IMG/VR virus record: IMGVR_UViG_3300041583_000345
Coordinates: 57,931-121,930 of that record
DNA length: 64,000 nt
Origin: a virus
Direction: 5' to 3' (one strand)
Positions 21,083 through 54,513 of the stretch are shown here, one piece after another; positions within the stretch are counted from its first letter, which is position 1, and the number at the start of each line of letters is the position of its first letter. The notes below the pieces were generated by a model that worked only from the letters and a program-made list of their open reading frames with translations, made no database searches and was not told where the DNA came from. The translations under genes and the position numbers were made by a program.

Positions 21083-21931
21083 TTATATTAAGTTTTTTAT
21101 ATCTACTACTGACTCTACCCCAAATATAACCGCAGCTTTATTAAAAAACTTACTAACTCCCTGTGGAAGGGTGTTTATTCCGTCCGGAATTATATGACCA
21201 AGAAGTTTTATCTGAAATGTTGTTTTAACTGTTCTATCTTGTCCTTGGTTTAACTCTGTAGAAGTTGTATAATTATCAATCATAGCCCTAAAATTAAACT
21301 TATCTGGGTCTCCCCAGTAGGCATCTGAAGCATAATTTATACTTTCTACTAATTTATTCATCTGTTCTATATATTCTGTGAAGATTGTGCATGAATATGT
21401 GATATTTACATAGTCAGGCATAACAACTCCTTGATATTCTTTAACAATTGATCTTGTATTTAGTATAGAAAACTTATCGTATTTGTTTTTACTAGAGTAT
21501 TTTTTTTCAAATATACCGAAATGATTTGGATTGTTAGCATCCATTTTATTTCCCACCTGTCTGTTCTTTTCTATACTGTCTCTCTTAATCATTATAAGAG
21601 GAACTTGTATCTTTCCGTTTTTATCCCTGTAGAATCCGTCTTTTTGTACTGCAGCCCAGCGTTCTGGTGAACCATATAGTACGGGGACTGTTTTGGTTAT
21701 GCTATTTTGTACAACAGAGGGTCTAATTACTTCATTAAAGTAAAAGAATATTGCTTCATCTATTTCTCTAAGACCAATACTAAGTCGTTTTACATCATCT
21801 CCTTTAACTGTACGCTGGTTAGCTCTTGTTTTTGTGTTAACATCAGGGGTTTTGCCGTCTGGGAGTAAAGATGTTACTGTTTTCTGTGAGAGTTCTACTT
21901 GAGATTTCGGAAGTATTGTTTTACCTGCCAT
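21083..21931 (-). CDS. Tail terminator / completion protein (gp15-like)
   Basis: VPVLYGSPERW, PLIMIKR, PDYVNITY; lies in the neck cluster. Confidence 0.7.
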   Translation of the reverse strand: MAGKTILPKSQVELSQKTVTSLLPDGKTPDVNTKTRANQRTVKGDDVKRLSIGLREIDEAIFFYFNEVIRPSVVQNSITKTVPVLYGSPERWAAVQKDGFYRDKNGKIQVPLIMIKRDSIEKNRQVGNKMDANNPNHFGIFEKKYSSKNKYDKFSILNTRSIVKEYQGVVMPDYVNITYSCTIFTEYIEQMNKLVESINYASDAYWGDPDKFNFRAMIDNYTTSTELNQGQDRTVKTTFQIKLLGHIIPDGINTLPQGVSKFFNKAAVIFGVESVVDIKNLI

Positions 21932-22202
21932 ATTTCCTATTTACGTGTTGTCTAAATGCTTTTTTAAACGATGCAAAGACGTTAAACAGCTGTTCTAGCT
22001 TCTGATCTTCAGGGTATTTCTTTAATACATCTTTATAATTATCATATGCGGACTGAATAGCAGTATCTACTCTTTTTAACGGGGTATATTTAATATCCCA
22101 AGACACTGTACCTGTTACCGGATCAGTGCCAGTTTTTTTTGATTTAAAAGTAGTGCTATCCTGTCTCCAGTCGTCTTCGTTAAGTATATCCTTTATCTTC
22201 AT
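21921..22202 (-). CDS. Hypothetical protein with a MKIKDILNE leader (putative internal head protein)
   Basis: Shared N-terminal motif; TATTTATA box at 22207-22214. Confidence 0.65.
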   Translation of the reverse strand: MKIKDILNEDDWRQDSTTFKSKKTGTDPVTGTVSWDIKYTPLKRVDTAIQSAYDNYKDVLKKYPEDQKLEQLFNVFASFKKAFRQHVNRKYGR

Positions 22203-22216
22203 CTTATATAAATAGT

Positions 22217-22711
22217 TTAGTAACTAGTACCTTCAAATTCAATCCCTGTCTTCTCTCTTCTTGTTAAATGACAGTCAACTATTATAGAAACTGATGTTCC
22301 AAACTGTTCTCCGTAGCTAGTTAAATTGTAATTCCTATCTCTACCTACAAATAATTGGTTTTCTCTTACTGTATCTACTTCATAGTAATCTTCTTGCCAA
22401 TTTAGTATGTCCCCTACCTCAGGTACCGTACCTATATCTACTAGATCCTCTCTTATGAATGCAAATGATACATCTCTTGTAAGATCTGGTCCAAAATCAT
22501 CAACATTTATTATTTGATCCCCTCTAGTTATTAAACAATTCAATTTTACCGGGGTCCAGTAGTTTTTAGTTAGAGCTTCTCCGTAGAGATTAGCTTGTGT
22601 CTCCTCTAAGCTTAGTTTATAGTACAGTACCTCCTGTTCTACTATGTCTTTTAGTAGTTCTCGGCTAATACCGGTTAGTAAATTAAAATCTCTGTTAGAT
22701 CCAAATAACAT
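22217..22711 (-). CDS. Neck / head-closure protein (gp14-like)
   Basis: NLYGEA, PEVGDIL, YYEVD; lies in the neck cluster. Confidence 0.7.
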   Translation of the reverse strand: MLFGSNRDFNLLTGISRELLKDIVEQEVLYYKLSLEETQANLYGEALTKNYWTPVKLNCLITRGDQIINVDDFGPDLTRDVSFAFIREDLVDIGTVPEVGDILNWQEDYYEVDTVRENQLFVGRDRNYNLTSYGEQFGTSVSIIVDCHLTRREKTGIEFEGTSY

Positions 22712-22712
22712 A

Positions 22713-23030
22713 TTAATAGTCTCCTGGTAATTTCATTCGTTCGATTGTCTTATTTGCTATTTTTACTACTTTAACATCCGGGTATCTCTCTAAAGCGGAC
22801 TTTTTGAAAGCTTCAAAAGCTTCTGCCCCGTTTTTTTGTGTTATTAATTTTACTTTAAACACATACGTCTTAGTTAATTCATTGCTTCCGGCTGCTGTTA
22901 CTGTTGTAACCCCTGGCAATGCCCTTAAAAGTTCTGCTAGTCGCGTAGTAGATTCTCCAGTACTAATAACCTGTACCATAGCTCTGTAGGGTATAAAGTT
23001 TACTTCCAGTAATATGTCTGATAGTTTCAT
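22713..23030 (-). CDS. Hypothetical protein with a MKLSDILLE leader (putative internal head protein)
   Basis: Shared N-terminal motif. Confidence 0.65.
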   Translation of the reverse strand: MKLSDILLEVNFIPYRAMVQVISTGESTTRLAELLRALPGVTTVTAAGSNELTKTYVFKVKLITQKNGAEAFEAFKKSALERYPDVKVVKIANKTIERMKLPGDY

Positions 23031-26523: not shown

Positions 26524-28095
26524 TTAGATTTGATTTAAATCAGATACGAAGATCTTACCATAAAATTCTGGTCTGATCATTTTCTTAGCATAACGAGTCA
26601 TTAAACCTTTTCTTGGAGTGAAAGTTTCTGGATCGTATACTAATGGAGTCATCATCAATGGAACATAAGGAGCATAAACTGCACCTGTTTCTAAGAACTG
26701 AGAACCTCTATATCCCATAAGGATTGTGTTTTCAGTCATGTAAGGGTTCTTGTAGACCTTGAATCGGTTAGATAAAGCTCCTACTTTTTGAACTCCCATA
26801 TTAAATTCCATTGCATCACCATCTGTTGCTGCTGCAAATCCTGGTATAGACTCTAATACAGTTGCTACTGTTGGAGATACTACTACGAAGTTTGCACCAC
26901 CTCTAAGAGTTTTTTGGTGAATCTTGTTAGATACTTTTTGGATTTTAGTTCCTAAAGTTTGGAACCATTGTCCTTGAGTATTGTAGAAATCTGAAGTAGA
27001 TACTGACCAGTTAGATCCGTCCCATACTTTGTTGTTTTCAGCTGACCAGAAATCAGTTGTTACAGCACCTGCAATTAACATATCTAATATTTCCATGTCA
27101 ATCTCCATAGAGATGTACTCAGATAATAAAGAAGTTAATTCAGCTTCTGCATCAATTGAATGGTAAGCGTTAAGATCCTGTGCAAATTCTGGAGTCCATT
27201 GTGCTTTTAACTTTCTAGTCTTAGCAACAATTGATTCAGAAGCAAGTTTAACATCAATAGACGGAATAGAGATTGAAGTATCTACTGCAGCATTTGAATC
27301 TGCTTCGAAATCTCCTCTATCGTTGTCTACTGGTTGTTTGTGCCATAATACAACTTTAGTTCCATTTGATCCTGCATCACCTGTAGCTACAACAAATACT
27401 AGGTTAGCTCCAACTACCTTAGTATATTGTGCTAATACTGCAATACCTGTAAGTCTAAATGCTCTAATACCTGTACTGTCGTATCCTGCTAAGTCTGATG
27501 TTGCAAAAGATACTGTATCGTAAGATGCAGGTGCTAATCCAACTTCGTAATCTAAAGAAGATGAAGTTGCTGTTGCAACTGTACCTGTAGCTGAAGTAGA
27601 GTTTTGGTTGATTGAGTAACCGAATTGACCGGCGCCGTAAAGACCTCCTGATACTTCTTCGTTTACTGCCATTTTGTCATTAGCTGTAGATACGTTTCCG
27701 TACATGTTGTCAGCTGCGGCTCTTCCGTTTGTTGAAGATCCATATTTAAAGTCAAGATAGAATACAAGACCTGATGGTAGGTTCATTGGTTGAACTGATA
27801 CGAAGTCTTGAGCTACGATTTGAGAAAATACTTTTCTTACTAACGGTAAAGCTACTCCTGCCCACTGCTCACCTGCTCCTGCAGAGAAAGAACCACCACC
27901 AACGTTAGTTGAGTTTGCTTCAGCAACGATTTGTTTTGCTTGATTCTCAAGGATCATAGCCATGTTGTTAGCATGACGCTCGTCTTTGATGCCTTCTAAT
28001 AATCCCGATTGAGACCATTTGTTTGCTAATTTAGTAGCGTCAGCCTGCATACTTTTGTATGAGTTTGAGCTTTCTAATAATGTGTTTATTTCCAT
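26524..28095 (-). CDS. Major capsid protein (gp23-like)
   Basis: VSVQPMNLPSGLVFYLD, KTRKLKAQWTPEFAQDL, YAPYVPL, FTPRKGLMTRY. Confidence 0.97.
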   Translation of the reverse strand: MEINTLLESSNSYKSMQADATKLANKWSQSGLLEGIKDERHANNMAMILENQAKQIVAEANSTNVGGGSFSAGAGEQWAGVALPLVRKVFSQIVAQDFVSVQPMNLPSGLVFYLDFKYGSSTNGRAAADNMYGNVSTANDKMAVNEEVSGGLYGAGQFGYSINQNSTSATGTVATATSSSLDYEVGLAPASYDTVSFATSDLAGYDSTGIRAFRLTGIAVLAQYTKVVGANLVFVVATGDAGSNGTKVVLWHKQPVDNDRGDFEADSNAAVDTSISIPSIDVKLASESIVAKTRKLKAQWTPEFAQDLNAYHSIDAEAELTSLLSEYISMEIDMEILDMLIAGAVTTDFWSAENNKVWDGSNWSVSTSDFYNTQGQWFQTLGTKIQKVSNKIHQKTLRGGANFVVVSPTVATVLESIPGFAAATDGDAMEFNMGVQKVGALSNRFKVYKNPYMTENTILMGYRGSQFLETGAVYAPYVPLMMTPLVYDPETFTPRKGLMTRYAKKMIRPEFYGKIFVSDLNQI

Positions 28096-28118: not shown

Positions 28119-29075
28119 TTATTTAATAATTCCAGCTAGTTTCTGCATTCTACGGACTGCATCAGATACTTCCGAAATAATCTCCGGTTTAGAAGCTGTT
28201 GTTCCTGTAGCTTTAGACGCCATACCTTTAAATTTTGATTCTGTAACATTTTCTTTTCTTGTATTAACTACATTTTCAGAAACTGTTTCAAAAACTAGTT
28301 TTACTTCTTTTACTGTTTCAGCTTTGTCGAAAGCAGCTATGATGTTAACTTTTTGTGATTCTGTAAGGCTGTTTGCCTTAAAGATTTTGTTTACATATAA
28401 CAATTTTGAATTAAGAAGGTTTACTTCTTGAAGATCTTTTTTAAGATATTTAATAGTATTTAAAGCTTCTTTAAGCTCTTCTTCCATTTTATCTTCTTTA
28501 TCAGACTTTTTAGATTTATGGTACTTCTCGCTTACTTGTTCTTCGTTTCCGTATTCTAATTCTCTTAAAAGTTCATCTAAATCGATTTCCTCTTCGTCTT
28601 CTACTTCCATTCCTGGTTCTTCCATTGCCGGTTCGTCTCCCATTCCTTCGATATCACCAGCATCCATATCATCTCCCATCTCAGCGTCGCTGCTTCCGAT
28701 TTCTTGAGCAATAATATCTCTGATCATGTCTTTGAATTGGTCTACTGAAAGATCACTAAGATCTTGGTCGCCTTCTAATTCCTCTTCTTCTGATTCCTCA
28801 GCTTCGTATCCTGGTGCTTCTTCTTCAGCTTCGTCTTCAGATTCTTCTGAATCATCCTCTGCCTCTTTTACTGCAATAAATCCTGATGCGTTTTCCTCTA
28901 CTCCTTCTTCTTCTTCATTAGATGAATCTTCCATCTCTTGAAGTTTAGCAGCTAACATATCTTTTAGATGAGGGGTTAAAGTCTCTTCTAGAGCTTGTTT
29001 AGCGTTAGCAATAGCGGCTTCACGTACGGATTTAGCTTCAGCAATAGCTTGCTTAAATAAATCTTTGTTTGCCAT
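28119..29075 (-). CDS. Prohead scaffolding protein (gp22-like)
   Basis: Highly acidic, helical, ends RMQKLAGI; directly upstream of the capsid gene; TATTTATA at 29171-29178. Confidence 0.75.
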   Translation of the reverse strand: MANKDLFKQAIAEAKSVREAAIANAKQALEETLTPHLKDMLAAKLQEMEDSSNEEEEGVEENASGFIAVKEAEDDSEESEDEAEEEAPGYEAEESEEEELEGDQDLSDLSVDQFKDMIRDIIAQEIGSSDAEMGDDMDAGDIEGMGDEPAMEEPGMEVEDEEEIDLDELLRELEYGNEEQVSEKYHKSKKSDKEDKMEEELKEALNTIKYLKKDLQEVNLLNSKLLYVNKIFKANSLTESQKVNIIAAFDKAETVKEVKLVFETVSENVVNTRKENVTESKFKGMASKATGTTASKPEIISEVSDAVRRMQKLAGIIK

Positions 29076-30362: not shown

Positions 30363-31024
30363 AATGATTTAAGAACTGCTTCTTTAAGCGTCTTTTCTCT
30401 TTTAGTTAAACCCTCCATTATACTCTGTATAGCCATGTCATTTACTTCATCAGCCATTTCATCTGTTAGTTTATCTAACTCATCATCTGTTAATGGAGTT
30501 CCGTCTTCATATTCTGCATAACTTATAAAAGCATCAGCAAAGTCTGGGTAGTCTCTAGAGTCAACGCCATCTACTTCTATGGTTGATCTATCTATAGGTT
30601 TTGTTAAAGCACTAGGAGGATTCCCTCTACGTGCAGACCTAGCTAACATAGCATCAATACTTGCATTTGAACCTTTTTTTGGTTCATTCTCTAAAGAAAC
30701 TTCGTTTTTCCTTTCTCTCATTGACATTTCCTCCGAATTGGAGGCGAAGTCAATTACATCGTCTTTTAAAGCTGCTAAATCTTGTAGCAAATCTGTATCT
30801 ATTCCTCCCTGGTCATTCCATGCATTTATATAATCATCTACTGTAGGAAGACTTGTTATATGTTTAGGAGCATATTTATTCATTATTCGATCAAAGTTGA
30901 TTCTCTCTAAAGCTACTCTTAAGGCTTCTTCCTCACCTTCTATTGCTTGTTCTTTAATTATTTTACTTGTTTGTGAAAGTTTATTTTCTAATATAAACCC
31001 TCGTAGGTTAAAGTTGTTGCTCAT
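30356..31024 (-). CDS. Putative internal head protein sharing a module with ORF 31606-33408
   Basis: NF..I..KY.P....LPT.DDYI.AW...GG.D module; directly downstream of the protease gene. Confidence 0.65.
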   Translation of the reverse strand: MSNNFNLRGFILENKLSQTSKIIKEQAIEGEEEALRVALERINFDRIMNKYAPKHITSLPTVDDYINAWNDQGGIDTDLLQDLAALKDDVIDFASNSEEMSMRERKNEVSLENEPKKGSNASIDAMLARSARRGNPPSALTKPIDRSTIEVDGVDSRDYPDFADAFISYAEYEDGTPLTDDELDKLTDEMADEVNDMAIQSIMEGLTKREKTLKEAVLKSLK

Positions 31025-31602
31025 AATGCTCTTAATATATCGTTTATAATTAATTCTAGTTTACTATATATATTATCAGTTGTTTTTCCTTCATTTAACG
31101 CTACTGGGTTCATAAAAGCTCCCTGTGTAGATGGATTAGATACGAAGTCCCAACATACTAGCTCAAAATCAGTTTGTACTTCTAAAGTACCTTCGTTTGT
31201 TTGCTGTACTGAACCGGTTCCTCTAGAGGAAATACCTATTGTATGCCCTGCTTTGCATATTTCTTTAACAATATTACCTGAAGGTGTATTTAATAGCTCT
31301 ATACGTCCCATAAGGGCGTCTCCCTCCCACCATAGTTCTTTTACTACATGTGAAGCGTTCTTTAGAGAGACTATAGGAGACTCAGGGTGATCAAGTTCTC
31401 CAAAGGCATTTCCAACCTTAACAAACTCTTCTATATATCTTTGAGATTCTCTAAGAAGAATTTCTTTACTGTATGTGCGTCCGTTTTGATTCTTGGCTAC
31501 TGCTCTCTGCAGAATACCTTCTACTTCGTAGACTCCAGGTTTTGTTTTGGATTCTGTAAGTAGGGATCTAAAAGGGGTGACATCTACTAATAGCTGTGAC
31601 AT
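31021..31602 (-). CDS. Prohead protease (gp21-like)
   Basis: NQNGRTY, GELDHP, GISSRGTGS, WDFVSNPST. Confidence 0.95.
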   Translation of the reverse strand: MSQLLVDVTPFRSLLTESKTKPGVYEVEGILQRAVAKNQNGRTYSKEILLRESQRYIEEFVKVGNAFGELDHPESPIVSLKNASHVVKELWWEGDALMGRIELLNTPSGNIVKEICKAGHTIGISSRGTGSVQQTNEGTLEVQTDFELVCWDFVSNPSTQGAFMNPVALNEGKTTDNIYSKLELIINDILRAL

Positions 31603-33411: not shown

Positions 33412-33636
33412 CTATATATAATCAAATCCTTTTGTATGTGATGGCCGTGTAGGACGGCTAACCTGTTTGTATCCTAATTTTGTTAATGTTTTCTTAGCTT
33501 TATTACCTTTTCCGAAAGCTTTTGGTGTCGCATATTGTGCTCCATCTCCTGGTGAAAAAGATCCTCCTCCGGTACTGGTAATATTTGCTTCGTCAAGCAT
33601 TTCCTTTATTAACTTAGTTAAGTCTGATCTTTTCAC
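33412..33636 (-). CDS. Small putative internal head protein
   Basis: MKRSDLTKLIKEMLDE leader followed by a Gly-rich/basic peptide. Confidence 0.65.
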   Translation of the reverse strand: MKRSDLTKLIKEMLDEANITSTGGGSFSPGDGAQYATPKAFGKGNKAKKTLTKLGYKQVSRPTRPSHTKGFDYI

Positions 33637-34518: not shown

Positions 34519-36414
34519 CTAATTACCTAAATCTTTAATGTTATCTTCATTCATCATATCTGGTTCAGATATAGTTTCTTTAGAAAACACTATATTTTTT
34601 AGTGCTGCTTTATTTTTATGGTAAACTCCTTTAGTGACCATGTTCTCCATTACATTCTCGTTGTCTGATGGGTATCCGCCGTGCATCCCGTGGGTGCCTA
34701 AAGGGTCTCTTCCTCCTAAACCGGCTGTTGTTCCGTATACTGAGGCTTTTTCAGTCGGTCTTCCTCCTTCTGGGCCTGGTTCTCCCCAATCCGGGGTTTC
34801 TTCTTCATATCCTGCTGGTACTTCTCCCGGGCCTCCACCTTTTGGTGTTGAAGTAGATCTTCTACCGTACATTGAAGCTAAGTCATGAGGGGTTCCGTAA
34901 GTTGTTCCTGATTTAGCAGGATCATTACCTTCATTCTCAATTTGTGCTATTCTAAATAGGCGTTTGGAATCTTCCCTAACTAAATCTCTCATTTCCATAT
35001 ACTCATCTTCTGATAAGTTAAATAGGTTTTCATATATGTAATCTGATGAGAATAATTTAGAGTCTTTCATTTGATTTGCAAGATCAATTTTCTCTTTCAT
35101 AAGAGCGACTTTTTCTTGTTCAAATATAATAGAAGGGGTAGTAAGTTTAATTTCAAAATTGGTTAAACTCTCTCCGGTAAATCCCTGTGTGTATAAATGT
35201 ACTAGTGCAATCTTAGTTAATTCAGATTCCAGTATCTTTTGAATTCTCTCTACAGTTCTAGCAAATCTAATGTCTTCTGCTGCTAATGTTGCCTTACCTG
35301 ATAAATCTCCTTCGTACCCGAAATAAGCTTTTGGTATCTTTAATGCTGCAAACATCTTAGCTTGTAGGTATATAACGTCTGTTACACCGTCATACTCTAA
35401 TCCTTTAGTAGTTTCAATTCTAGTAGAAGTATCACCTCCTCTTACAGGCATGTAGAAATCTTCCATCATGTTCTGCATATTAAACTTTAAGTTATATTGT
35501 CCATCATCTCCAATATAAGGAGTTTTTTTCATTCCATTGATAGTCTTTTGCATGAACTGTTCTACCTCTGTAGGTGGTACGTTTCCTACATTTATATAGA
35601 ACATTCTCTTTTCTGGAGCTCTCATGATTCTATGAATCAACATTGCATCCTCCATTAAAGTTACCTGTTTAAAGATTTTTCTGGCTGGCTCTAAATAAGA
35701 ACGGCCGTAAGGTAGGTAATTTGTATCTGAGATTAGTCTAAAGTGAGCAATTTCGTAATTGTCAAACTCTACTACTCTTTGGTCTGATTTTCTCTTGGGT
35801 AAGTAGTTTGGATTCTGTGAAGATGCTAATCCGTCTGGGTCTAGTTGGAATGAAACTTTGGAAGGGTTTTCTGGGTCTATGCCCTCTCTTCTCACCATAT
35901 GGTAAACTGTATATGGAAGTACATTATAAACTCCAAACTTCTCAGCTATCTCTAATTTTAAAAAGAAATCACCGTATTTACACATATTACGAGTCCATGA
36001 CCATAAGTTAAACTCGATGTTTAATACATCGTAAAATAAATTATAAAGAACTTTTTGAATGTTTTCGTCTGATGATTTAATCGCTAAGATTTCGTTTTGA
36101 TCGTTCTTAGTGCATGCTTCATCGGCAATAATATCTAATGCTGAAGCTATAATAGGATCGGTGTCCATCGCTTCATAATCAGAATATAATTGAATCCTTA
36201 ATGTTTGATAATTCAAGTTAGGATTAAATATATTTTTATTGTTGTAAATATATAGACGGCTAAACCTGTCTATAAGTGAGTTTGTCTGGTATTTACCAGT
36301 CTGCTGTATTTGATTAACATCGGCAATCTTTAACTCATTACCTCCTACGTTTCTGATTACAATATCAGAAGCAAAGAGTGTTTTAAGTCTGCCAAATAGT
36401 GAAGTATCCGCCAT
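34519..36414 (-). CDS. Portal protein (gp20-like)
   Basis: MEDAMLIHRIMRAPEKRMFYINVGN, EDFYMPVRGG, ALKIPKAY, DIRFARTVERIQ; TATTTATA at 36431-36438. Confidence 0.95.
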   Translation of the reverse strand: MADTSLFGRLKTLFASDIVIRNVGGNELKIADVNQIQQTGKYQTNSLIDRFSRLYIYNNKNIFNPNLNYQTLRIQLYSDYEAMDTDPIIASALDIIADEACTKNDQNEILAIKSSDENIQKVLYNLFYDVLNIEFNLWSWTRNMCKYGDFFLKLEIAEKFGVYNVLPYTVYHMVRREGIDPENPSKVSFQLDPDGLASSQNPNYLPKRKSDQRVVEFDNYEIAHFRLISDTNYLPYGRSYLEPARKIFKQVTLMEDAMLIHRIMRAPEKRMFYINVGNVPPTEVEQFMQKTINGMKKTPYIGDDGQYNLKFNMQNMMEDFYMPVRGGDTSTRIETTKGLEYDGVTDVIYLQAKMFAALKIPKAYFGYEGDLSGKATLAAEDIRFARTVERIQKILESELTKIALVHLYTQGFTGESLTNFEIKLTTPSIIFEQEKVALMKEKIDLANQMKDSKLFSSDYIYENLFNLSEDEYMEMRDLVREDSKRLFRIAQIENEGNDPAKSGTTYGTPHDLASMYGRRSTSTPKGGGPGEVPAGYEEETPDWGEPGPEGGRPTEKASVYGTTAGLGGRDPLGTHGMHGGYPSDNENVMENMVTKGVYHKNKAALKNIVFSKETISEPDMMNEDNIKDLGN

Positions 36415-39211: not shown

Positions 39212-40333
39212 CTACTTTATTAATGCAAGTCTAGGAGTATAATCAGAAACTGTTGTTACTATCTTTATAGAGTTACCAATCTCCTGCTCAAGGTCTTGAC
39301 TATTACTTATTATTTTATAGTCTAGGTCACTACTAATAAACATTATAGGATGTGCTATTTCTTCTATGTATGCTTTGGCAAGATCTTTTGCTATTCTTAA
39401 ATTAAATTGCGATAAGGAATTTAGGTCCGCAGTTTCTACCTTTACTACCCCTGGGCCGTATATATCATCTAAAAGTTCCTTAAGGTTTATGTAAAATTGG
39501 TTTTCCTTATTTTTATCAGATGTTTGTTTAAGAACGTTTAAATAGTGGAATAACCTTCCCGTCCATCCTGCATTTTTAAGCGGTATTAATACCTTAGCAT
39601 CTTCTTCCGGGAAGAATTTTAATATGTTTGAAACTATTTCACCTATACTATCTCCTCTTCCTGAAATCTTTTTTGGAGCTAGTATTGCACCTGTTAATGT
39701 TCCTTTCTTATTTAAAGAAGAAGCTTTTAATTCTAATGTACCACTAGCTGTTAATACGTCCCCCTTTGGTGCACTTTTAGTATCACTAAGAAGGCAAACT
39801 AAGGCTATCTCTCCTCTTCCAACTCCTTTTTGATTTGAACCCGGGGAGAAGCTAATTAATTTATTAATATGTTTTGAATCTATACCGGTTATATTTGCTA
39901 ACTCGCTTGAGAGGTTTCCTGATTTAGAAAGTTTATCGAATGTATTATTACTATTATTAAGCGAGGAAATTATATTGTTTTCTATGTTATTTTTATCTGC
40001 ATACCCAACAATTAAAAGAGTTTGTTCTTCCCCTAACCCTTTTTTAGTTAATGCATTAATTAGAGAAGTAGTATACCCTTTCCCGGTTTTCTTAATAACT
40101 GAATAAAGCTTAGCAATCTGTTCTGGGGAAAACTCTTGTTCTTTCGAATTTAAAAGTTTAATTATATCCTGGACTGATTGGTTGGTTTGTTGAGTTTCTT
40201 GTTTTACTGTATCTGTAAGTTTAACTCCAAACATATCTTCAAATAAAATTATATCCTCTTGATTATTAATATCAGGATATCCTTTATTAGTTCTATAAGA
40301 CCATTCTTGTATAATTTTATCTATAAGATTCAT
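39212..40333 (-). CDS. Putative internal protein with a PD-(D/E)xK nuclease-like domain
   Basis: MNLIDKIIQE leader; GVGRGEIAL...GDV...LELK. Confidence 0.5.
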   Translation of the reverse strand: MNLIDKIIQEWSYRTNKGYPDINNQEDIILFEDMFGVKLTDTVKQETQQTNQSVQDIIKLLNSKEQEFSPEQIAKLYSVIKKTGKGYTTSLINALTKKGLGEEQTLLIVGYADKNNIENNIISSLNNSNNTFDKLSKSGNLSSELANITGIDSKHINKLISFSPGSNQKGVGRGEIALVCLLSDTKSAPKGDVLTASGTLELKASSLNKKGTLTGAILAPKKISGRGDSIGEIVSNILKFFPEEDAKVLIPLKNAGWTGRLFHYLNVLKQTSDKNKENQFYINLKELLDDIYGPGVVKVETADLNSLSQFNLRIAKDLAKAYIEEIAHPIMFISSDLDYKIISNSQDLEQEIGNSIKIVTTVSDYTPRLALIK

Positions 40334-40342: not shown

Positions 40343-41002
40343 TTATGCTTCTGGTTCTTCTCCGTCTTCAAAATCAATAGGCTCATCGGATAAATCCTCT
40401 CCTCCTCCTTCATCACCACCTTCTGCTCCTCCGGTATCATCTGCTGCAAAGTCATCTTCTCCTCCTGTTGCTCCTCCTTCTCCTCCAGGAAATTCCCCAC
40501 CGCCCCCAGATGCGTCTGCTACATCTGATCCTGATACTGAGTCTTCCCCTGCGCCTTTCATTGGTGATTCTGAGTAGAGTATTGCAAGTTTGTCTAGAGC
40601 TTGTTGGTAGTCTGAAATATTGGAAAGGGTGTATCGTTTACCTAGAATTTTAGCAACAAAGGTTTTACCCATCCATTTTAACTCGTAGTCTTGACCGTTC
40701 TTGAGGTTAATTCTAAAAGCGGTCGGTCTTGGAGAGATCCAATCTATTGTATCTACAAATTCTAAAAAGTCTTCTGTTTGTAATTTTACAATAGCCTGTT
40801 TCAAGGTTGGAAACTTAGCTAAAATAGTATCTGTTGCATCTTCAAGTACAGTCTCTTTTGGTGCATCCATATCAGGTTCTTCTTCAGGTGTTGGCTTTTC
40901 TTCAGTTTCTTCTTCAGCTTCCTCTAGCTCATCTAATAAACCTTCTAATAAAACTTCTTGGTATGCTTCTAGTATAATATTCTTTAAATCGCTTTTTTTC
41001 AT
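40343..41002 (-). CDS. Acidic putative prohead core protein
   Basis: MKKSDLKNIILE leader; very Glu/Asp/Gly-rich termini. Confidence 0.6.
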   Translation of the reverse strand: MKKSDLKNIILEAYQEVLLEGLLDELEEAEEETEEKPTPEEEPDMDAPKETVLEDATDTILAKFPTLKQAIVKLQTEDFLEFVDTIDWISPRPTAFRINLKNGQDYELKWMGKTFVAKILGKRYTLSNISDYQQALDKLAILYSESPMKGAGEDSVSGSDVADASGGGGEFPGGEGGATGGEDDFAADDTGGAEGGDEGGGEDLSDEPIDFEDGEEPEA

Positions 41003-41003: not shown

Positions 41004-43712
41004 TTACTTAGTTCTACAATGATCTTTACCTTTTAAAAATGGAGTTTTACATTTAGACCCCTTAACGTGTACCCGGCCACATTTTCCACAGCAGGTTCCT
41101 TTTTCTTCGTCAATATGGTGACCCTTATCTGTTGCCCAATCATCCATATCATCGTTGACATCCTCATCTTCCGTAATGGATAAAAGGTTAAGCTTTTTAG
41201 TTTCGTCTTCTGCTCTTTTCTTAGTTGCAAAATCTGTTATAATTTTATCTCCTTTCCATACTTGGTATGTATTATTAGATTTCGAAAACTTTACTTTGTG
41301 TTTTCCCTCTTCTATTGATTTTTTAATTACACCACCTTTATTATATATGTTTGTAGCTTTAGTATCGCCTGTTCCTTTATTGTAGGATACACTATATTGA
41401 GGTCTATCCATTATGTCTGTTCCGGCTTTTGTGATAACACCTGGGTGGCCTAAGTGTTTTACTTTGTCTCCTACTTTAAACTCTAACCCTGAAGCTTCTT
41501 CTAGGTCTTCGCTTACTATATTACCTTTGGTAGTTTCAGATACCTCTTTAGATAGTTTTTTATACTTAGATAGTAAATTAGCTATTTTGTCATCTTTCCC
41601 AACCATTGTATTAATTTGACTAGGTTCTAATTTTCTACTATAGTATTTTTCTATTTGATTTTTGAGGTCTTTAAGTTGAGAGGGTTCGTTTACTTCTATT
41701 TTACGTTCCTCAAGATATTCATTTTCGGCACCAACAGCATTATATGCTTCTATACCAAATCTTTTTATTACTTCTTGTTGAGATTTCCCAGAATCGATCA
41801 TTCGCTTTGCTCCCTCAATATCTTTTCTAAATTGTGTTTTTTTAGGTTTGGATGGGCGACTGGCTGCTTTGTCAGCATACTTTTGTTGTGCTGGTGTTAT
41901 TTCATTTACACCATCATAGTTTTGTTTTCTTAATACTTGCGTAACAGCGTAGACAGCATCCTGTAATGAATAATCGTATCTATCTGCTAATTTTCTTATA
42001 AATCCATTTACTAGTCTATCTAATTCGGGGTTTACATTTTCTTTTATATTAGAGGAGGAGGGGAGTATTGAATTAGTACCTCTAACTATTAGTCTTAGTT
42101 TACCATTTTTTATAACTACAGTTTTTGTAAATAAGGAATCTGACTTAACATGGTCCACCTTATAATCTGTGCCTTTAATAAATGAGTTTTTATCTTTACC
42201 ATTATATTTTACAGTATCTCCGGGTTTTACCGTATTATAAAATTTGATTTGTTCTTTTTGGTCTAGCCCTTCATTTTCTTTTACTAAATGGGACATCCAT
42301 GATGAATCTATTTTATACCCATCCAGCCAGTCTTTTAGTTCAGCAGGGGAATCTCTCTTAATGGTAGAAGTAGCATTTTGATCATATATACTAGCATCCT
42401 TCTTTGTTATATCCATTTCCCATTTATTCCCACTTTTTTGAATATCGTATTGCTTACCAGTATTACTGTCTTTATATAATGTTGAGTTACCTTCATTTAA
42501 CCCATCATAGTTTTGTTTTCTTAATACTTGCGTAACAGCGTAGACAGCATCCTGTAGTGAGTAGTCGTACCTATCTGCTAATTTTCTTATAAATCCATTT
42601 ACTAGTCTACCTAATTCGGGGTTTACATTTTCTTTTACTATTTCATCAATAACATCAATAACTTCATCTGTATCATACCCACTTGAATCTGCCCAATCTT
42701 GGAACCTATCGAAGTCTCTTTTTGGTAAAACATAATAAGTATCCCTACCGTCTTTTTTATAACCTAAGTTTCTAGAAAGACTTTCATCAGATAAGAATTT
42801 ATCATCTAAATATCCATCGTCTAATGTGAACGTAATGGTATTACTATCTTTATTAGTATTTTTATTTTTATTCTTTTCGGTTGCTATTAAAGCTTGTATT
42901 TTCTCTATGGTGGTTTTTTCAGGATGGTTTTTTAGTCTATCAGCTTGTTGTGCATCAGAAAATTCATTATCTGTCATTTCACTTGTTGGTGTAGGGTGAT
43001 ATTGTCTTAGGTTTGGCTTTACCTCTATACCGTGTTTAGTACCTCCTTTTAAAAAGGCTGCTCTACGGCTTAATTTATTGGCGGTTGATACTGCCCTATT
43101 TGATGTTTTAATCTTTTTTTCTTGCATTTTGGAAGAAAAATGTTTGGTAAGCTCATTTGCTATTACATCAACATGTATTACCGGTTCTCCTGATGGTTTA
43201 ATACCTATTTCACCAACTGCTTTATTATATGAAAAATCTACTAAGTGTAATTCTTCTCCCTCTATATAAAAAGAAAAGTTATCTGTCCGATTATCTTTAT
43301 ATTCTACGTGTAGATTAAAACTACCCTCTTCTATGTTTATAGCTTTCATATGAGATAATTCATCTCCGGCTGCTATAAGGGCTTTGGCTAAAGATTTACC
43401 TACCCCTCTTGCAATTTGTTTAGTTTCTTCTACCGAAAATCTAGCTTCTCCTTTTGCTTCTTTAGTTAACTTAACGTTGATCCCTTTTTTGGCTAGTTTT
43501 TCTGCTTCTATTTCACTATCAGTAGATATTGTACCAGCTTCTTGTTCAGCTAAAATTTTTAATTCACTATCTAATGCTTCTTTAATAGACTGTAGCTGGG
43601 ATATGGTTTCTTGTACATTTATTCCAGGTACATTTTGATATGTTCCGCTCTGTAGTGAAGTTAGTGCGGACTGAACGTTTGTTAACCTGTCGTTTAGTTC
43701 TTGATATGTCAT
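41004..43712 (-). CDS. 902-aa modular putative internal polyprotein
   Basis: MTYQEL start; short modules bounded by hydrophobic-x-E sites; duplicated 45-aa module. Confidence 0.6.
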   Translation of the reverse strand: MTYQELNDRLTNVQSALTSLQSGTYQNVPGINVQETISQLQSIKEALDSELKILAEQEAGTISTDSEIEAEKLAKKGINVKLTKEAKGEARFSVEETKQIARGVGKSLAKALIAAGDELSHMKAINIEEGSFNLHVEYKDNRTDNFSFYIEGEELHLVDFSYNKAVGEIGIKPSGEPVIHVDVIANELTKHFSSKMQEKKIKTSNRAVSTANKLSRRAAFLKGGTKHGIEVKPNLRQYHPTPTSEMTDNEFSDAQQADRLKNHPEKTTIEKIQALIATEKNKNKNTNKDSNTITFTLDDGYLDDKFLSDESLSRNLGYKKDGRDTYYVLPKRDFDRFQDWADSSGYDTDEVIDVIDEIVKENVNPELGRLVNGFIRKLADRYDYSLQDAVYAVTQVLRKQNYDGLNEGNSTLYKDSNTGKQYDIQKSGNKWEMDITKKDASIYDQNATSTIKRDSPAELKDWLDGYKIDSSWMSHLVKENEGLDQKEQIKFYNTVKPGDTVKYNGKDKNSFIKGTDYKVDHVKSDSLFTKTVVIKNGKLRLIVRGTNSILPSSSNIKENVNPELDRLVNGFIRKLADRYDYSLQDAVYAVTQVLRKQNYDGVNEITPAQQKYADKAASRPSKPKKTQFRKDIEGAKRMIDSGKSQQEVIKRFGIEAYNAVGAENEYLEERKIEVNEPSQLKDLKNQIEKYYSRKLEPSQINTMVGKDDKIANLLSKYKKLSKEVSETTKGNIVSEDLEEASGLEFKVGDKVKHLGHPGVITKAGTDIMDRPQYSVSYNKGTGDTKATNIYNKGGVIKKSIEEGKHKVKFSKSNNTYQVWKGDKIITDFATKKRAEDETKKLNLLSITEDEDVNDDMDDWATDKGHHIDEEKGTCCGKCGRVHVKGSKCKTPFLKGKDHCRTK
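41911..42046. repeat. 136-bp intragenic direct repeat, copy A
   Basis: 5 mismatches versus 42502-42637 by manual alignment. Confidence 0.9.
42502..42637. repeat. 136-bp intragenic direct repeat, copy B
   Basis: Encodes KENVNPEL(G/D)RLVNGFIRKLADRYDYSLQDAVYAVTQVLRKQNYDG. Confidence 0.9.
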
Positions 43713-44429: not shown

Positions 44430-45089
44430 TTAGGTATTTTTGTACCGTGCTTTTTGTAAGTATTTATTTTCTTTTAATTTAGGTGTATTGTCGTGCCAAC
44501 ATTTATGGCAAGTATATAAATCGTCTCCACCCTCTTTTATTTTCCAATGCCAATCGCAATTGTCGCAGTGTATTTCATCTCCAACTATGGTTTCGAACAT
44601 ATCTTCGGCTTTATAAGCTGATACGTCTACTTCAATATCATCTGTTCCACTTATTTTAGCTTTTGGAAAATTTTTCTGTATAATAATTTTATATAATTTT
44701 GCTCTAGTATTATCTTTAGCATCTTCTTCCCCTGTTTTTCCTTTGGTAGGAGAATATAGTATACTATCAACATCACCCTTATATTCTATAAAAGATTTTA
44801 CTATATCAACTATAGTAGACATTATTTTAAGTGGTTCGTTTCCCCCCGTTAATTGTTTTGAAGACATACCCCTAACACCATGTTGGGCTAAAAATTCAAG
44901 TTCCCAAACAGAACGAGTGCCTATGTAATTGTAGAGATTAACCTCATATTTAGTACCACTGTCTGTGATAAAAGTATATACGTCATTTTCTTCATCGCTT
45001 TTATCAAATTCAGCTTTCCAATCGTAGGGTTTTTGAGATAAATCTCCTATCTCGTTTAGTTTTTCGAATATGATATCAGTTAATTTCAT
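44430..45089 (-). CDS. Putative internal protein with a C-terminal zinc ribbon
   Basis: MKLTDIIFE leader; CDNC...CHKC. Confidence 0.65.
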   Translation of the reverse strand: MKLTDIIFEKLNEIGDLSQKPYDWKAEFDKSDEENDVYTFITDSGTKYEVNLYNYIGTRSVWELEFLAQHGVRGMSSKQLTGGNEPLKIMSTIVDIVKSFIEYKGDVDSILYSPTKGKTGEEDAKDNTRAKLYKIIIQKNFPKAKISGTDDIEVDVSAYKAEDMFETIVGDEIHCDNCDWHWKIKEGGDDLYTCHKCWHDNTPKLKENKYLQKARYKNT

Positions 45090-45091: not shown

Positions 45092-45817
45092 TTATCCTAA
45101 ATTAGTAGACTGTGTACCACCTTGAGGTTTAATTAAATCTTGGGCAAAAGCAGTTAATTTTTCTATTGAAGTAAATGCTGGGGTTCCTTTAGTTTCTCCT
45201 GTAGCTACATCTACTACTCTATATAATGCTCTACCGGATTTGTCTTTATATGTAGGTTCCACTTTTACTAATTTAAAAATATACTGATCATTATACTTAG
45301 AAGAAATTTGGTTTGGCCATTCTTGTGGGATGTCTTCCTCCTTTATAGCTTTTTTAGATAATTTAAAAGCCGCTAATCTTACTTTTAATCTTTTAATTTC
45401 AGCTTCATACCCCTTAGGATTTTCATCTTGTAATATTTTAATTTCTTTTTCTATATCCTTATAGGCTACAGCATTTTCGGCTACAGCTTTTTTAGCTGTT
45501 AAAGCTGCTTTAACTTGAGCTATATCTTTTTCTAGGTCCATAACTTCTTTATCCGTACCTCTAGATTTAGCTATTGCTAGCTCGTTGTTTAGGTTTATTA
45601 TGTACTGAGCTAGTTCATTTCTAGTGGTATTATCATATGCTGCTTCATTCTTCATAGCATTACCTGCTGCCACTGCATCTTTGTGTGCATTAGAATTACC
45701 GTGAGATGGTTTTTTACCTTTTTTACGTTTAGCATTAATATTAGCCCATAAGCCCGGTGTATTCTTTTCTGCTAATAAAGCATCTTTGATAATTTCTATA
45801 AGGTATGATTTTTTCAT
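45092..45817 (-). CDS. Modular putative internal protein
   Basis: MKKSYLIEIIKDALLAE leader; modules end in xxE. Confidence 0.6.
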   Translation of the reverse strand: MKKSYLIEIIKDALLAEKNTPGLWANINAKRKKGKKPSHGNSNAHKDAVAAGNAMKNEAAYDNTTRNELAQYIINLNNELAIAKSRGTDKEVMDLEKDIAQVKAALTAKKAVAENAVAYKDIEKEIKILQDENPKGYEAEIKRLKVRLAAFKLSKKAIKEEDIPQEWPNQISSKYNDQYIFKLVKVEPTYKDKSGRALYRVVDVATGETKGTPAFTSIEKLTAFAQDLIKPQGGTQSTNLG

Positions 45818-46211: not shown

Positions 46212-46790
46212 TTAAAAATGTTCCCGTAAGTGACCTAAGTAAGTCTTGAGGTCTTCTAATAACTGCTTGCTTTTATTTGTATTTGAGTTCCAGTCTTCTA
46301 TTACTCCATCTTCTGTGACAAAAGATTCGTTTGTATTAGATACTAAATCTAACACCCAATGTTCAACATCTTTTGCAAATGCTTGAATATTACCGGACAT
46401 CATTTTCTGTTCATAAGCTTGATATAAACCTGCTTTTTGTAAATCTGCTTCAAAGTTGACTGTACATGGATCAAAACAAAAACCATGTAGTTTATACATT
46501 TTTTTAGCTAAGTGGTGTTTCATTGTGCCCTTACACTTTGGACATATTAATGGTATATGAACTGCCTTTTTTGCAGCGTCTAATTTGGTAATGTTCTGTC
46601 TAATCCCATTTTTAACCGTCCAGTTCTTACCTCCTTCTTCCCATATTTCACCTTCTTTGTACCTCTTTATAACTTTTTGATACCCAACTTGGGTTTTAGT
46701 GTTAGCTGTATAGTCCTTATTTACTATATTCCTAACTCGTTGAACATCTGATTGTTTAAAGTCTTTTTTTAATAACGATTCCTTACTCAT
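46212..46790 (-). CDS. Hypothetical zinc-binding protein
   Basis: CPKC...CFDPC. Confidence 0.65.
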   Translation of the reverse strand: MSKESLLKKDFKQSDVQRVRNIVNKDYTANTKTQVGYQKVIKRYKEGEIWEEGGKNWTVKNGIRQNITKLDAAKKAVHIPLICPKCKGTMKHHLAKKMYKLHGFCFDPCTVNFEADLQKAGLYQAYEQKMMSGNIQAFAKDVEHWVLDLVSNTNESFVTEDGVIEDWNSNTNKSKQLLEDLKTYLGHLREHF

Positions 46791-47328
46791 ATCCGAGTTC
46801 TTTTAATTGACCTATTACTTGTTTTACATTTCCCTGCACACATCTAATAGCTATCCCGCCGCTGGCAGTCCATTCTTCTATATTAGATTTCTTATCATCT
46901 ATTAGGATAGTATTACTTTTTGCGTATCTTTGTTTATCAGCAGAGTATGAAAATATTACTTTTGGGTGTGGGGTTAAATGATTTCTAACCCACATATTTT
47001 TACCCAATCTTGAGTTATTATCTCTTGAAGGGGATGTAAGAAGGTCTGGTTGATAAGGTTTGATAAAGTCCCAAAGTTGTTGGCCGTTGGGCATAAATTT
47101 CATATCTGACCAAAACTTAAGTCCCACTTTCACATCTATTAACTCCCAAAAAGCGGCTGTACTATTTTTACTCTCGTATTCTTTTGGTTTCATACCGGAG
47201 AAATGTTCAAATCTCTCTTCGAAATCTGTTAATACTCCGTCCATATCACAATAAATCTTGTAAGGTGGTTTTTCTTTTTGTTCCGGTAATGTGTACCCTT
47301 CTGCTAGTAGTTCTGATATTTTTTTCAT
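46783..47328 (-). CDS. HAD-family 5'(3')-deoxyribonucleotidase-like phosphatase
   Basis: IYCDMDGVLTDF, LLTSP, ILIDDKKSN; MKKISELLAE leader. Confidence 0.85.
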   Translation of the reverse strand: MKKISELLAEGYTLPEQKEKPPYKIYCDMDGVLTDFEERFEHFSGMKPKEYESKNSTAAFWELIDVKVGLKFWSDMKFMPNGQQLWDFIKPYQPDLLTSPSRDNNSRLGKNMWVRNHLTPHPKVIFSYSADKQRYAKSNTILIDDKKSNIEEWTASGGIAIRCVQGNVKQVIGQLKELGYE

Positions 47329-49968: not shown

Positions 49969-49972
49969 ATTA

Positions 49973-50881: not shown

Positions 50882-50970
50882 ATTTCAATATCTTTATTAG
50901 TTTCTAAATATAGTAAATTTAATTCAAATAAACTACACTATTCTAATAAATAGTTTCTATATACGTTTAC

Positions 50971-52676: not shown

Positions 52677-52700
52677 AAAAATATCCGTAACTATAATACT

Positions 52701-52732
52701 ATAATATACGGACTTTAATTCGATTTAGCAAC
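52701..52732 (-). promoter_or_regulatory. Bacteroidota sigmaA-type promoter upstream of primase
   Basis: Minus strand GTTG-N20-TATATTAT. Confidence 0.55.
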
Positions 52733-52733
52733 T

Positions 52734-53162
52734 TTATACGTCAATCATTTTAAGTTGCCTTGTTTTTAGGTCTATCATTACATTCCCCTTACCGAAGTCC
52801 AATTCTTGTGGATCTATATTGTTTTCCTGTGCTTCTTGTTTAACTGCTTCTTCAAAATCATGAGGTATTTCTCCATTGAATACCTGTAAAAGCTCCATTG
52901 TTATAATACCTAATTTTGGGTTCATTACTTCTACATCGTGAATAAAAGCAAAGTTTCTAGTTGGTATTCCTTTTAGAAGTTCTGCATGTTCTATTTCAAC
53001 CTCATCAGTAGTTACTTTAACAACCACATTGTTAACTTGATATGCTGAGCCATAATCTCCTGAACCTAAGAATTTACCTCCGTCTGATTTTATTTTATCT
53101 ACAAGTCTAGTGTATTCTGGTGTAGGTTCTATAATTTCAAGTATAATAGAGGATAATTTCAT
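52734..53162 (-). CDS. Minimal protein-kinase-like enzyme (142 aa)
   Basis: LGSGDYGSAY, VVKV, DEVE, LDFGKGNVM (DxxxxN), terminal MIDV; MKLSSIILE leader. Confidence 0.75.
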   Translation of the reverse strand: MKLSSIILEIIEPTPEYTRLVDKIKSDGGKFLGSGDYGSAYQVNNVVVKVTTDEVEIEHAELLKGIPTRNFAFIHDVEVMNPKLGIITMELLQVFNGEIPHDFEEAVKQEAQENNIDPQELDFGKGNVMIDLKTRQLKMIDV

Positions 53163-53166
53163 GTTT

Positions 53167-53607
53167 TTATGATACGTCTATTTCAGAATGTTCAGCATCA
53201 TAACCTGCATTTCTCAAAGCAGATATCACTTCATTTTCATCAAATCTACTTCCATGGGAAAGTACTATTCCTGTTATACTCTTTATCATTTCAATAGCCT
53301 TAACTTCGTCTTCCTCTCTTTGTTTTACACCGTCGATAGATATACTGTATAGTTTACCGGTTTGCTCTACTGAGGTTATATTTATTTTAGGGCTACTGTT
53401 TTCTTCTGCTATTTCATCTAAACCTAAGTGTTTATGAAGTTCTTCCATAAAGAGCCCAACAAGGTGGGAGCCGTATTCATTTCTTACTACTTCTGCTACT
53501 CCTTGTGCAAAATCTTTATATCCTAGATTTGGATCTATTTTATCAATAGCGCTATTAATTGCTACTGCAATTTTACTTTCTTGTAATATTATATCCGTTA
53601 GTTTCAT
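53167..53607 (-). CDS. Putative internal protein
   Basis: MKLTDIILQE leader. Confidence 0.65.
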   Translation of the reverse strand: MKLTDIILQESKIAVAINSAIDKIDPNLGYKDFAQGVAEVVRNEYGSHLVGLFMEELHKHLGLDEIAEENSSPKINITSVEQTGKLYSISIDGVKQREEDEVKAIEMIKSITGIVLSHGSRFDENEVISALRNAGYDAEHSEIDVS

Positions 53608-53741
53608 TACCCCTGCCCTTTATATAGTTTTTGATAGTTTTTTGAACTTTTTAACTTTGATGTTTTACTTTTTGAATGAACTCCTGGTCGGCTTATTTTG
53701 CTTTTTGTTTTTGCTCTCCCGGCTGATGTTTCTTTTGCCAT
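53607..53741 (-). CDS. 44-aa Lys/Ser-rich basic peptide missing from the ORF track
   Basis: MAKETSAGRAKTKSKISRPGVHSKSKTSKLKSSKNYQKLYKGQG; its TAA overlaps the next ATG (TAATG). Confidence 0.7.
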   Translation of the reverse strand: MAKETSAGRAKTKSKISRPGVHSKSKTSKLKSSKNYQKLYKGQG

Positions 53742-53754
53742 ACTACCTTTAATA

Positions 53755-54513
53755 TTATATTCCTAATGATTTAGCATATTTCATTAAATTACAAGTCCAG
53801 TAGCCTGATTTTGTTTTGTCCGTCTTTGTAGAACACTTGTGCCTTATTCTATAAGCAGACATGGCTCCTTTAACTTTATTCTTTTGTGGGATACCCCCAT
53901 CGGTAAAAGCTACTTTTATTACTTTATTCCCATCCTTAACATAAACGTAGTATTTTTTAGTACCTCCACGTTTAGGTTTATCAAGTTTTACTTTTTTACC
54001 TTGATATTCTGCCTCGTTCATATATCCAACTGAAGCTTTTAACATATCAAATCCGCTGTAGTCAAAAGATTCATTATTTACGTCTACTGCTTTTCTAAAC
54101 TTATCCATATCTATTTGACCCCCTATTGATTCAACCATTTCTTTTATCTGGTCAAAATCAATCATATCAGCAATACATGACGCTTCATCAATTGTATCTT
54201 CATTTTCAATCATAGAGTCAATAAGTGCTCCAATTTCAAATAATGGATTATATTTTTTTGATACCATAGGCAGGTCTAATGGAACTTTCATACCATTATA
54301 TTGTGCATATTCTCCTATGTCTGTTGTTTCTATCAGATCTTGGTCCTCTTCTGTTAACTCTATTTCTTCGTTGCTAAGAGATTCTCTTGCTTCAGCAAAT
54401 AGGTTTACAAAGGCTGTTTCGTTACCCCGGTAGACATGTTCGTTTAATGGTAGTCCATTATCTAAATGGTACTTTAATGATGGGTAGCCAAGTACTTCTG
54501 TTAGTTTAATCAT
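53755..54513 (-). CDS. Modular putative internal protein with a basic C-terminal domain
   Basis: MIKLTE start; after YMNE comes AEYQGKKVKLDKPKRGG..KKYYVYVKD...YWTC. Confidence 0.65.
   Translation of the reverse strand: MIKLTEVLGYPSLKYHLDNGLPLNEHVYRGNETAFVNLFAEARESLSNEEIELTEEDQDLIETTDIGEYAQYNGMKVPLDLPMVSKKYNPLFEIGALIDSMIENEDTIDEASCIADMIDFDQIKEMVESIGGQIDMDKFRKAVDVNNESFDYSGFDMLKASVGYMNEAEYQGKKVKLDKPKRGGTKKYYVYVKDGNKVIKVAFTDGGIPQKNKVKGAMSAYRIRHKCSTKTDKTKSGYWTCNLMKYAKSLGI

Follow-up and report, generated by a model that had tools for sequence, protein, structure and literature searches.

A leader peptide on unrelated proteins of a marine T4-type phage is probably a capsid-targeting signal

We analyzed a 64,000-nucleotide stretch of viral DNA, hereafter the window, which forms the final 64 kb of the 121,930-bp record IMGVR_UViG_3300041583_000345 (positions 57,931 to 121,930; record completeness estimated at 74%) and comes from an uncultured T4-type phage that infects marine Flavobacteria. 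Roughly ten of the proteins encoded in the window, several of them enzymes, are unrelated to one another yet begin with a similar short peptide, the leader. By analogy with known phages, this peptide most likely serves as a tag for loading its carriers into the capsid. The capsid-targeting sequence (CTS) of T4 is the textbook case of how a phage protein is loaded into the head for injection, and we consider it probable that the leaders described here represent a variant, specific to this lineage, of the T4 capsid-targeting or prohead propeptide signal, with enzymes as cargo. Every feature of the T4 system that can be examined by computation was found, namely a gp21-type prohead, a peptide of 9-17 residues at the N-terminus, an (L/I)-x-E end, unrelated carriers, and a position outside the fold.

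All real genes of the window are carried by the minus strand, to which all window coordinates of genes below refer. Open reading frames (ORFs) are named by a w and their start position in the window, and related IMG/VR loci by an L and a number. The closest cultured relative is Flavobacterium phage vB_FspM_immuto (immuto), with a capsid protein identity of 68%, followed by T4-like cyanophages at about 33%. The host of immuto is Flavobacterium sp. LMO8.

A shared leader on otherwise unrelated proteins

A first-pass annotation of the window had proposed that twelve ORFs share a capsid-targeting-like leader. All twelve lie on the minus strand with the reported residues at their starts, and they are mutually unrelated, as BLAST finds no paralogue among them once the first 20 residues are trimmed. 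The shared leader itself was borne out for four core members and six looser or longer ones, and had to be given up for w43712, which has no terminal hydrophobic-x-Glu, and w54513, which has Gly in place of Glu. The short form of the leader follows the consensus M-K-[LK]-[ST]-x-[IL]-[IL]-x-(x)-E, and leaders of 9-17 residues occupy the extreme N-terminus.

An all-versus-all comparison of N-terminal 10-mers of non-paralogous proteins gave 14 pairs scoring at least 20 and 8 pairs scoring at least 22, against means of about 4 and about 1.7 in within-protein and column shuffles; internal 10-mers gave no pair at either threshold. Leaders were scored with a leave-one-out (LOO), N-anchored position-specific scoring matrix (PSSM), for which 0.14 (shuffles) or 0.02 (internal sites) hits of at least 10 bits are expected per genome. 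The core members reached 21.8 (w53607), 20.6 (w23030), 17.5 (w45089), and 15.9 bits (w53162), and the looser members w22202, w40333, and w47328 reached 6-8 bits. A longer variant, MK[KR]S.L..[LI]I.E, is found on w33636, w41002, and w45817. Short and long leaders interchange on homologous proteins, with immuto having the long form: the family whose gene directly follows that of the protease begins MKLSKIILEN in several loci, against MKKSELVKLIKEE in immuto. Leader-bearing genes of immuto lie at MW353175 positions 102294-102869, 102880-103359, 103366-103806, 109856-110455, and 123355-123576. The looser criterion of [LI]xE near the N-terminus is enriched only 1.6-2x and is therefore not useful alone.

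All seven leader genes of at least 6 bits sit in the virion-gene region, which holds 38 of the 155 genes (Fisher p = 3e-5), and the early half of the genome (about 75 genes) has none. The large proteins of this genome were also scanned for leader-like junctions, with a polyprotein in mind, and none was found; the only such case is the internal w41002 helix in relatives.

The signal lies in the peptide

Leader copies use differing synonymous codons, the DNA upstream of leader genes has no common sequence, and in 228 tagged genes from relatives the codon usage of the leader is near that of the gene body. T4 ipII and ipIII have an identical 30-nt leader in the T4 record, and a DNA-level box or recombination hot spot of that kind was rejected here in view of the synonymous differences and the lack of a shared upstream sequence. 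One and the same scan found leader N-termini on 9 of 155 genes in this genome and on 6 of 212 in immuto. Two AT-rich phages of Flavobacteriia whose heads are not of the T4 type, phage 11b (0/68 genes, 31% GC) and Cellulophaga phi14:2 (0/124 genes, 30% GC), had none. As judged from these sequence comparisons, the leader is under selection at the level of the peptide.

Conservation and portability among relatives

In 160 related loci taken from IMG/VR, with the portal and the primase as anchors, the leader is kept family by family. The 120 homologues of w23030 are about 50% identical overall, yet M1, K2, L3, I6, and I7 are nearly invariant and Glu falls at positions 8-10, and the 102 homologues of w53162 keep MKLSKIILE, MRLSHVILGE, and similar starts. 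The profile scan of the genome and its relatives that the first-pass annotation had called for separates true starts from internal sites, as 228 of 2178 first-Met ORF starts in the related loci (10.5%) score at least 10 bits, compared with 6 of 10747 internal Mets (0.06%).

When the first 14 residues are trimmed, these 228 ORFs fall into 15 unrelated families. They include a leader-tagged Fe/Mn superoxide dismutase (SOD; L148:2380-3000), in which the Pfam domain starts at residue 12, and a zeta-toxin-type P-loop kinase (L144:12094-13026), in which the domain starts at residue 10. In these two proteins, as in the 5'-deoxyribonucleotidase NT5C described below, the leader stands as an extension ahead of a complete domain. 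In 68 relatives (L086-L165), the w54513 homologue and the primase flank a variable island of 0.6-3.1 kb, which corresponds to positions 52677-53754 of the window. Of the 232 genes in the island, 126 (54%) carry the tag, and at fixed positions one cassette alternates with another.

The leader and predicted folds

Two structures, w23030 and w53162, were modeled with AlphaFold (AF2) from family alignments. Mean predicted local distance difference test (pLDDT) values were 82.8 for w23030 and 89.5 for w53162, and residues 1-10 had values of 58 and 39, respectively. The leader is thus the best-conserved segment of both families yet has low pLDDT in otherwise confident models, and a best-conserved segment outside the fold behaves as a linear signal. 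In these models, the leader is not part of the folded domain.

A gp21-type protease and its sites

The head module of the window contains a portal protein of the gp20 family (34519..36414; Pfam Portal_T4, 234 bits), a major capsid protein of the gp23 family (26524..28095; Pfam Gp23, 279 bits), and a prohead protease homologous to gp21 (31021..31602; Peptidase_S77, 114 bits), which is presumed to be the enzyme that removes the leader. The protease is 38% identical to T4 gp21 (E 9e-30) and keeps the catalytic motifs GELxHP and SSRG. Judging by these homologies, the phage builds a T4-type prohead with gp20, gp21, and gp23 homologues. A scaffold-like protein at the gp22 position (28119..29075), recognized by its position and conserved N-terminus, had no match in a Pfam search and contains several hydrophobic-x-Glu sites (IAE↓A, VRE↓A, LQE↓M).

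The capsid protein has the cut site assigned to it by the first-pass annotation, I56-V57-A58-E59↓A60 (codons at 27919-27930), and the site is conserved in about 30 orthologues; QIVAE59↓ANSTNVGG aligns with LLRE↓STTTN of T4 gp24. Conserved hydrophobic-x-Glu sites are also present at the N-terminus of the protease, where residues 15-17 are a conserved [LI]-x-E, and in a 74-aa protein of the core cluster (w33636).

In the T4 record, the gp21-processed proteins start with MKTYQEFIAE (IPII/III), MAKINELLRE (gp24), MELITELFDE (Alt), MNEPQLLIE (gp21), and MLKEQLIAE (gp22), and gp23 is cut after FLTE65. Removal of these propeptides by gp21 has been published (PMC9958956 sec. 3.1; PMC9026906 sec. 2.6), and in the T4 CTS, residues 4 and 7 are needed for targeting and residues 8 and 10 for processing (PMC9026906 sec. 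2.6). For a non-circular test, we chose 134 ORFs by residues 2-7 alone. All 134 have Glu at positions 8-10, compared with 26% of other N-termini, with Ile or Leu two positions ahead of that Glu in 133 of the 134. At the sequence level, the (L/I)-x-E end of the leader is the T4 gp21 rule.

Run on 286 T4 ORFs, a 7-residue leader PSSM placed Alt, gp24, gp22, and gp68 in the top 15. This cross-comparison is moderately specific, so the likeness to T4 is one of pattern, and we claim no sequence similarity to the CTS. The resemblance to the IPII/III leader that the first-pass annotation had drawn accordingly stands for the pattern and not for the sequence, in which no similarity was detected. Similarity to the IPII/III leader is not a defining feature, as the other core proteins of T4 are without it.

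The tagged proteins

Among the cargo classes named in the first-pass annotation, the kinase, as a protein-kinase-like fold, the HAD phosphatase, and the zinc ribbon were recovered, and the nuclease-like protein is a weak lead only. Searches of the cargo against Pfam, PHROGs, and NCBIfam matched only NT5C and, weakly, DUF6934. The core member w23030 (22713..23030) is a 105-aa protein of the neck/adaptor gene block with the leader MKLSDILLE and a ferredoxin/ACT-like fold, and a fold search yields only this generic fold. Near it is w22202 (21921..22202; 7.9 bits), a 93-aa basic protein with the leader MKIKDILNE, a mature isoelectric point (pI) of 9.6, and an orthologue in L011 that begins MKIKDILSE. 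The 219-aa w45089 (44430..45089; leader MKLTDIIFE) has a C-terminal zinc ribbon CxxC..CxxC, with Cys at 175/178/194/197, and a weak DUF6934 match from residue 31. The 142-aa w53162 (52734..53162; leader MKLSSIILE) is protein-kinase-like, with Foldseek matches to ERK2, CK2, and TYK2-JH2 (E ~2e-5). Next to it, w53607 (53167..53607) is a 146-aa acidic protein with the leader MKLTDIILQE whose family of 56 members is the largest tagged family among relatives; its immuto orthologue has the long leader MKKSQLREIIRKE in place of MKLTDIILQE. Just upstream of these tagged genes, a 44-aa very basic ORF rich in Lys, Arg, and Ser (53607-53741) has matches in 41 related loci and, from its composition, may encode a DNA-binding peptide.

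The looser member w47328 (46783..47328; leader MKKISELLAE) is a 181-aa HAD-type 5'-deoxyribonucleotidase (NT5C; phrog_2643, E 1.4e-26) whose NT5C/HAD domain begins at residue 20, and all NT5C orthologues have an x-L-x-[DE]-L-L-[EG] extension ahead of the DMDGVL motif. The 373-aa virus-only protein w40333 (39212..40333; leader MNLIDKIIQE; 7.2 bits) belongs to a family in which 35 orthologues keep M-x-[LIV]-[IVT]-D-K-[ILV]-x-x-E-W. It is possibly nuclease-like: a GDV..ELK motif is present, Atlas restriction-endonuclease clusters at 0.79 are a lead only, and a PDB sequence search likewise gave leads only.

Three proteins have the longer leader form. The very acidic 219-aa w41002 (40343..41002) starts with MKKSDLKNIILE, and this helix is N-terminal in about 15 loci; in some relatives the w41002 module forms the C-terminal portion of a protein of 600-840 aa. 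The 902-aa gene upstream and the 219-aa gene (together 40343-43712) are separated by a stop plus one base, and immuto, L074, L076, L077, and L078 have a single 600-840-aa protein; the split coincides exactly with the leader-like helix. The 241-aa basic protein w45817 (45092..45817) has a 17-residue leader-like start, MKKSYLIEIIKDALLAE, followed by the motif GLWANI.AKR.RG.KP. The GLWANI motif is all that it has in common with proteins of relatives, where it is internal and repeated, and membership of w45817 is plausible but weaker. In its extended form, GLWANI.AKR.RG.KP.H.NS, the motif after the w45817 leader is repeated within an 1150-aa protein at L011:3229-6678.

The third, w33636 (33412..33636), is the 74-aa prohead-cluster protein beside the portal gene, with the N-terminal helix MKRSDLTKLIKEMLDE and 70 orthologues that follow MK[KR]S[EQ]L..LV[KR]EV..EL.E↓AN[VI]T..GGASFTPG. 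Its helix is followed by LDE↓ANITSTGGGSFSPG, which is near-identical to the capsid protein after its own cut site (..QIVAE↓ANSTNVGGGSFSAG). The likeness between E↓AN[IV]T..GG.SF.PG in w33636 and E↓ANSTNVGGGSFSAG in the capsid protein holds in 70 loci. From this sequence likeness, w33636 may mimic the N-arm of the capsid protein, or it may be another substrate of the protease.

Two listed proteins were rejected as tagged. The 902-aa w43712 (41004..43712), a doubtful member, keeps the start MTYQE[LVI] in its family (MTYQEL here) and has no hydrophobic-x-Glu end. The 252-aa w54513 (53755..54513) starts with MIKLTEVLG and is not a member, as its 76 orthologues keep MIKLK[DE]hhG[YL]PSL, with Gly at the place of the Glu and Glu never present.

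Other starts resemble the leader. At genome positions 48253-51362, outside the window, four paralogues begin MIKLIDLLENKILVPRRS and a fifth gene begins MKFNYSKLLIENK; all of these are leader-like starts in which, however, the hydrophobic pair immediately precedes the Glu. A 141-aa protein of immuto begins MIKLIDLLTE. A second leader type, M.DNFNLR.F[LI].ENKL, occurs at 30356-31024 (w31024) and in relatives at L035:120-458, L074:5875-7134, L071:73-1965, and L078:3183-4202, on proteins of widely different length and genome position that have only the first ~25 residues in common. The ORF w31024 is a paralogue of the 600-aa w33408, which lies across the protease gene.

Neighboring genes and upstream boxes

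The capsid and PhoH genes are separated by a gene for a 468-aa homing/HNH endonuclease (25001-26407), and the large terminase is interrupted by a 245-aa ORF (37592-38329). The endonuclease and the ORF have 0 and 1 matches, respectively, in 80 portal-anchored relatives, and with this near-absence both look like recent mobile insertions. Two box types occur genome-wide 10-40 nt upstream of starts: (C)TATTTATA upstream of the portal, adaptor, sheath, tube, and other virion genes, and TTCGTATATTTA upstream of the polymerase, primase, and other early-type genes. As a means of assigning leader genes to late units, the boxes proved too weak for use.

Discussion

By analogy with T4, we propose that the leader would bind the scaffolding core during head assembly and thereby carry the tagged protein into the prohead. 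Cleavage after the leader Glu by the gp21 homologue would follow, as at the capsid protein site IVAE↓A, and the mature protein would remain in the head with the DNA and enter the host at infection. The predicted cargo in this phage comprises the kinase-like protein, the deoxynucleoside monophosphate (dNMP) nucleotidase, the zinc-ribbon protein, and small basic proteins, to which relatives would add the superoxide dismutase and the zeta-type kinase. The address-tag interpretation of the first-pass annotation keeps its footing in the gp21-type protease, the (L/I)-x-E end, the portability of the leader, and its position outside the fold and ahead of complete enzyme domains; it fails for the two listed proteins that are not members.

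Several observations weigh against a capsid-targeting role. The residue after the leader Glu is mostly N/D/E, compared with A/S at the capsid and scaffold sites, and in the search of T4 ORFs, proteins that do not belong to the head also ranked high, with DNA ligase first and IPII/III outside the top 25. The leader Glu is lost in some NT5C orthologues, the w40333 leader abuts a conserved W-[SA]-[YWF]-[RK] segment, and the w41002 helix is internal ([IT][ST]K.ELKE[IL]MLEAY) in L074, L076, L077, L078, and immuto, a position that fits a cut at a junction and a structural helix alike. Cargo pI ranges from 4.1 to 10.2, with several acidic proteins, unlike the basic internal proteins of T4, and dNMP nucleotidase and SOD have no obvious use within a capsid. 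Many tagged genes have replication genes as neighbors. Our literature searches found no virion proteome of this lineage, for which immuto is the sole cultured relative.

Other explanations were weighed against the same evidence. The leader could be a short linear motif for another shared partner, such as a protease timer or degron, a chaperone, or another assembly, with the likeness to gp21 sites being coincidental. Portability, disorder, and conservation would suit any docking motif, metabolic enzymes are among the cargo, the position of many tagged genes beside replication genes would be natural, and the T4 cross-test was only moderately specific. We regard such a partner as unlikely, although it deserves attention: none is apparent, and the idea leaves unexplained the invariant Glu with Ile or Leu two residues earlier, the 9-10-residue length in common with T4 propeptides, and the same leader type on proteins encoded inside the prohead gene cluster. 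It seems improbable to us that the leader is an integral, never-removed N-terminal helix with a structural or oligomerization role, arising by convergence or old domain sharing. Both confident AF2 models place it outside the fold, the Pfam or PHROG domains of SOD, zeta kinase, and NT5C begin after it, cellular homologues of these enzymes do without it, and leader types swap on homologous domains; in favor of such a helix are the conserved segment that the w40333 leader abuts, the internal service of the w41002 helix in fused proteins, and the w54513 family, whose similar start clearly belongs to its domain.

We give very little weight to the idea that the motif arises from AT-rich composition or from the translation-start preferences of Bacteroidota (no Shine-Dalgarno, A-rich starts). 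Leader codons do lean slightly to A-ending ones, MK starts are common everywhere, and shuffles give many moderate matches because N-termini are compositionally biased. However, the order-preserving statistics exceed within-protein shuffles, synonymous codons vary, the two phages of the same host class and even lower GC gave zero hits, and the early half of the genome is free of leaders of at least 6 bits. Hardly credible is a recognition sequence for a modifying enzyme, linked to radical-SAM/SPASM proteins and similar to the leaders of ribosomally synthesized and post-translationally modified peptides (RiPPs), as the genome, in the part covered by the record, has no SPASM domain, and its sole radical-SAM match is a QueE-like gene of the deazaguanine pathway, below the family cut-off.

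The capsid-targeting reading, which we favor, can be compared with several known systems. The CTS of T4 IPII/IPIII (MKTYQEFIAE), together with IPI and Alt, was described by Mullaney & Black 1996, as reviewed in PMC9026906 and PMC3012670. Both the CTS and the leader are short peptides that stand at the N-terminus of proteins with nothing else in common, in phages with a gp21 protease. Both have a hydrophobic-hydrophobic-x-Glu end at residue 9-10, and the genes concerned are scattered outside the head cluster. Unlike the CTS, the leader follows the consensus MK[LK][ST]x[IL][IL]xE with no detectable similarity to the IPII/III leader, its copies differ at synonymous sites where the T4 copies are DNA-identical, and it is found on far more cargo families, including several enzymes and some acidic proteins. 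The function is proven for the T4 CTS, in which Asp in place of the Glu prevents processing but leaves targeting intact; for the leaders described here it is inferred. The gp21-removed propeptides of T4 gp24 (10 aa), gp21 (9 aa), and gp22 (PMC9958956) are similar in length and end motif: MAKINELLRE of gp24 is close to MKKISELLAE of w47328, and the 9-mers MNEPQLLIE and MLKEQLIAE are like MKLSDILLE. However, those propeptides sit on structural or core proteins and are not a portable enzyme tag.

The polymorphic ip loci of T-even phages (PMC3012670, PMC9026906) are likewise a variable island of unrelated small genes with only the leader in common, although host group and genes are different, and an anti-restriction role is shown for T4 IPI, whereas a counter-defense role is only proposed here. 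In giant phages of the phiKZ/SPN3US type (PMC5694885), processing of head propeptides by a homologous protease likewise takes place after Glu and extends to many of the ejected head proteins, but the propeptides are mostly 80-130 residues long, have an A/S-x-E motif, and have no common short tag. In our literature searches, CTS-like leaders were found described only for T-even phages, on a few small basic proteins.

More tentatively, and with somewhat less confidence than we place in the targeting signal itself, we suggest that T4-type phages of marine Bacteroidota may have an open-ended cargo system, in which any protein with a 9-13-residue tag would be loaded into the head and injected together with the DNA. 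The primase-adjacent island would serve as the site of cassette exchange, and the enzymes (kinase-like, zeta-type kinase, superoxide dismutase, dNMP nucleotidase, and nuclease-like) would arrive ready-made for host takeover or counter-defense. Should the leader function as the T4 CTS does, the same principle would be applied to a much larger and more varied cargo, recognizable enzymes included, by a widespread lineage of marine phages with hundreds of IMG/VR contigs. The tagged set would then be a list of candidate injected effectors drawn from "dark matter" genes, and the leader would provide a second, independent tag sequence for engineered protein delivery by phages. In the cultured relative immuto, the idea is directly testable.

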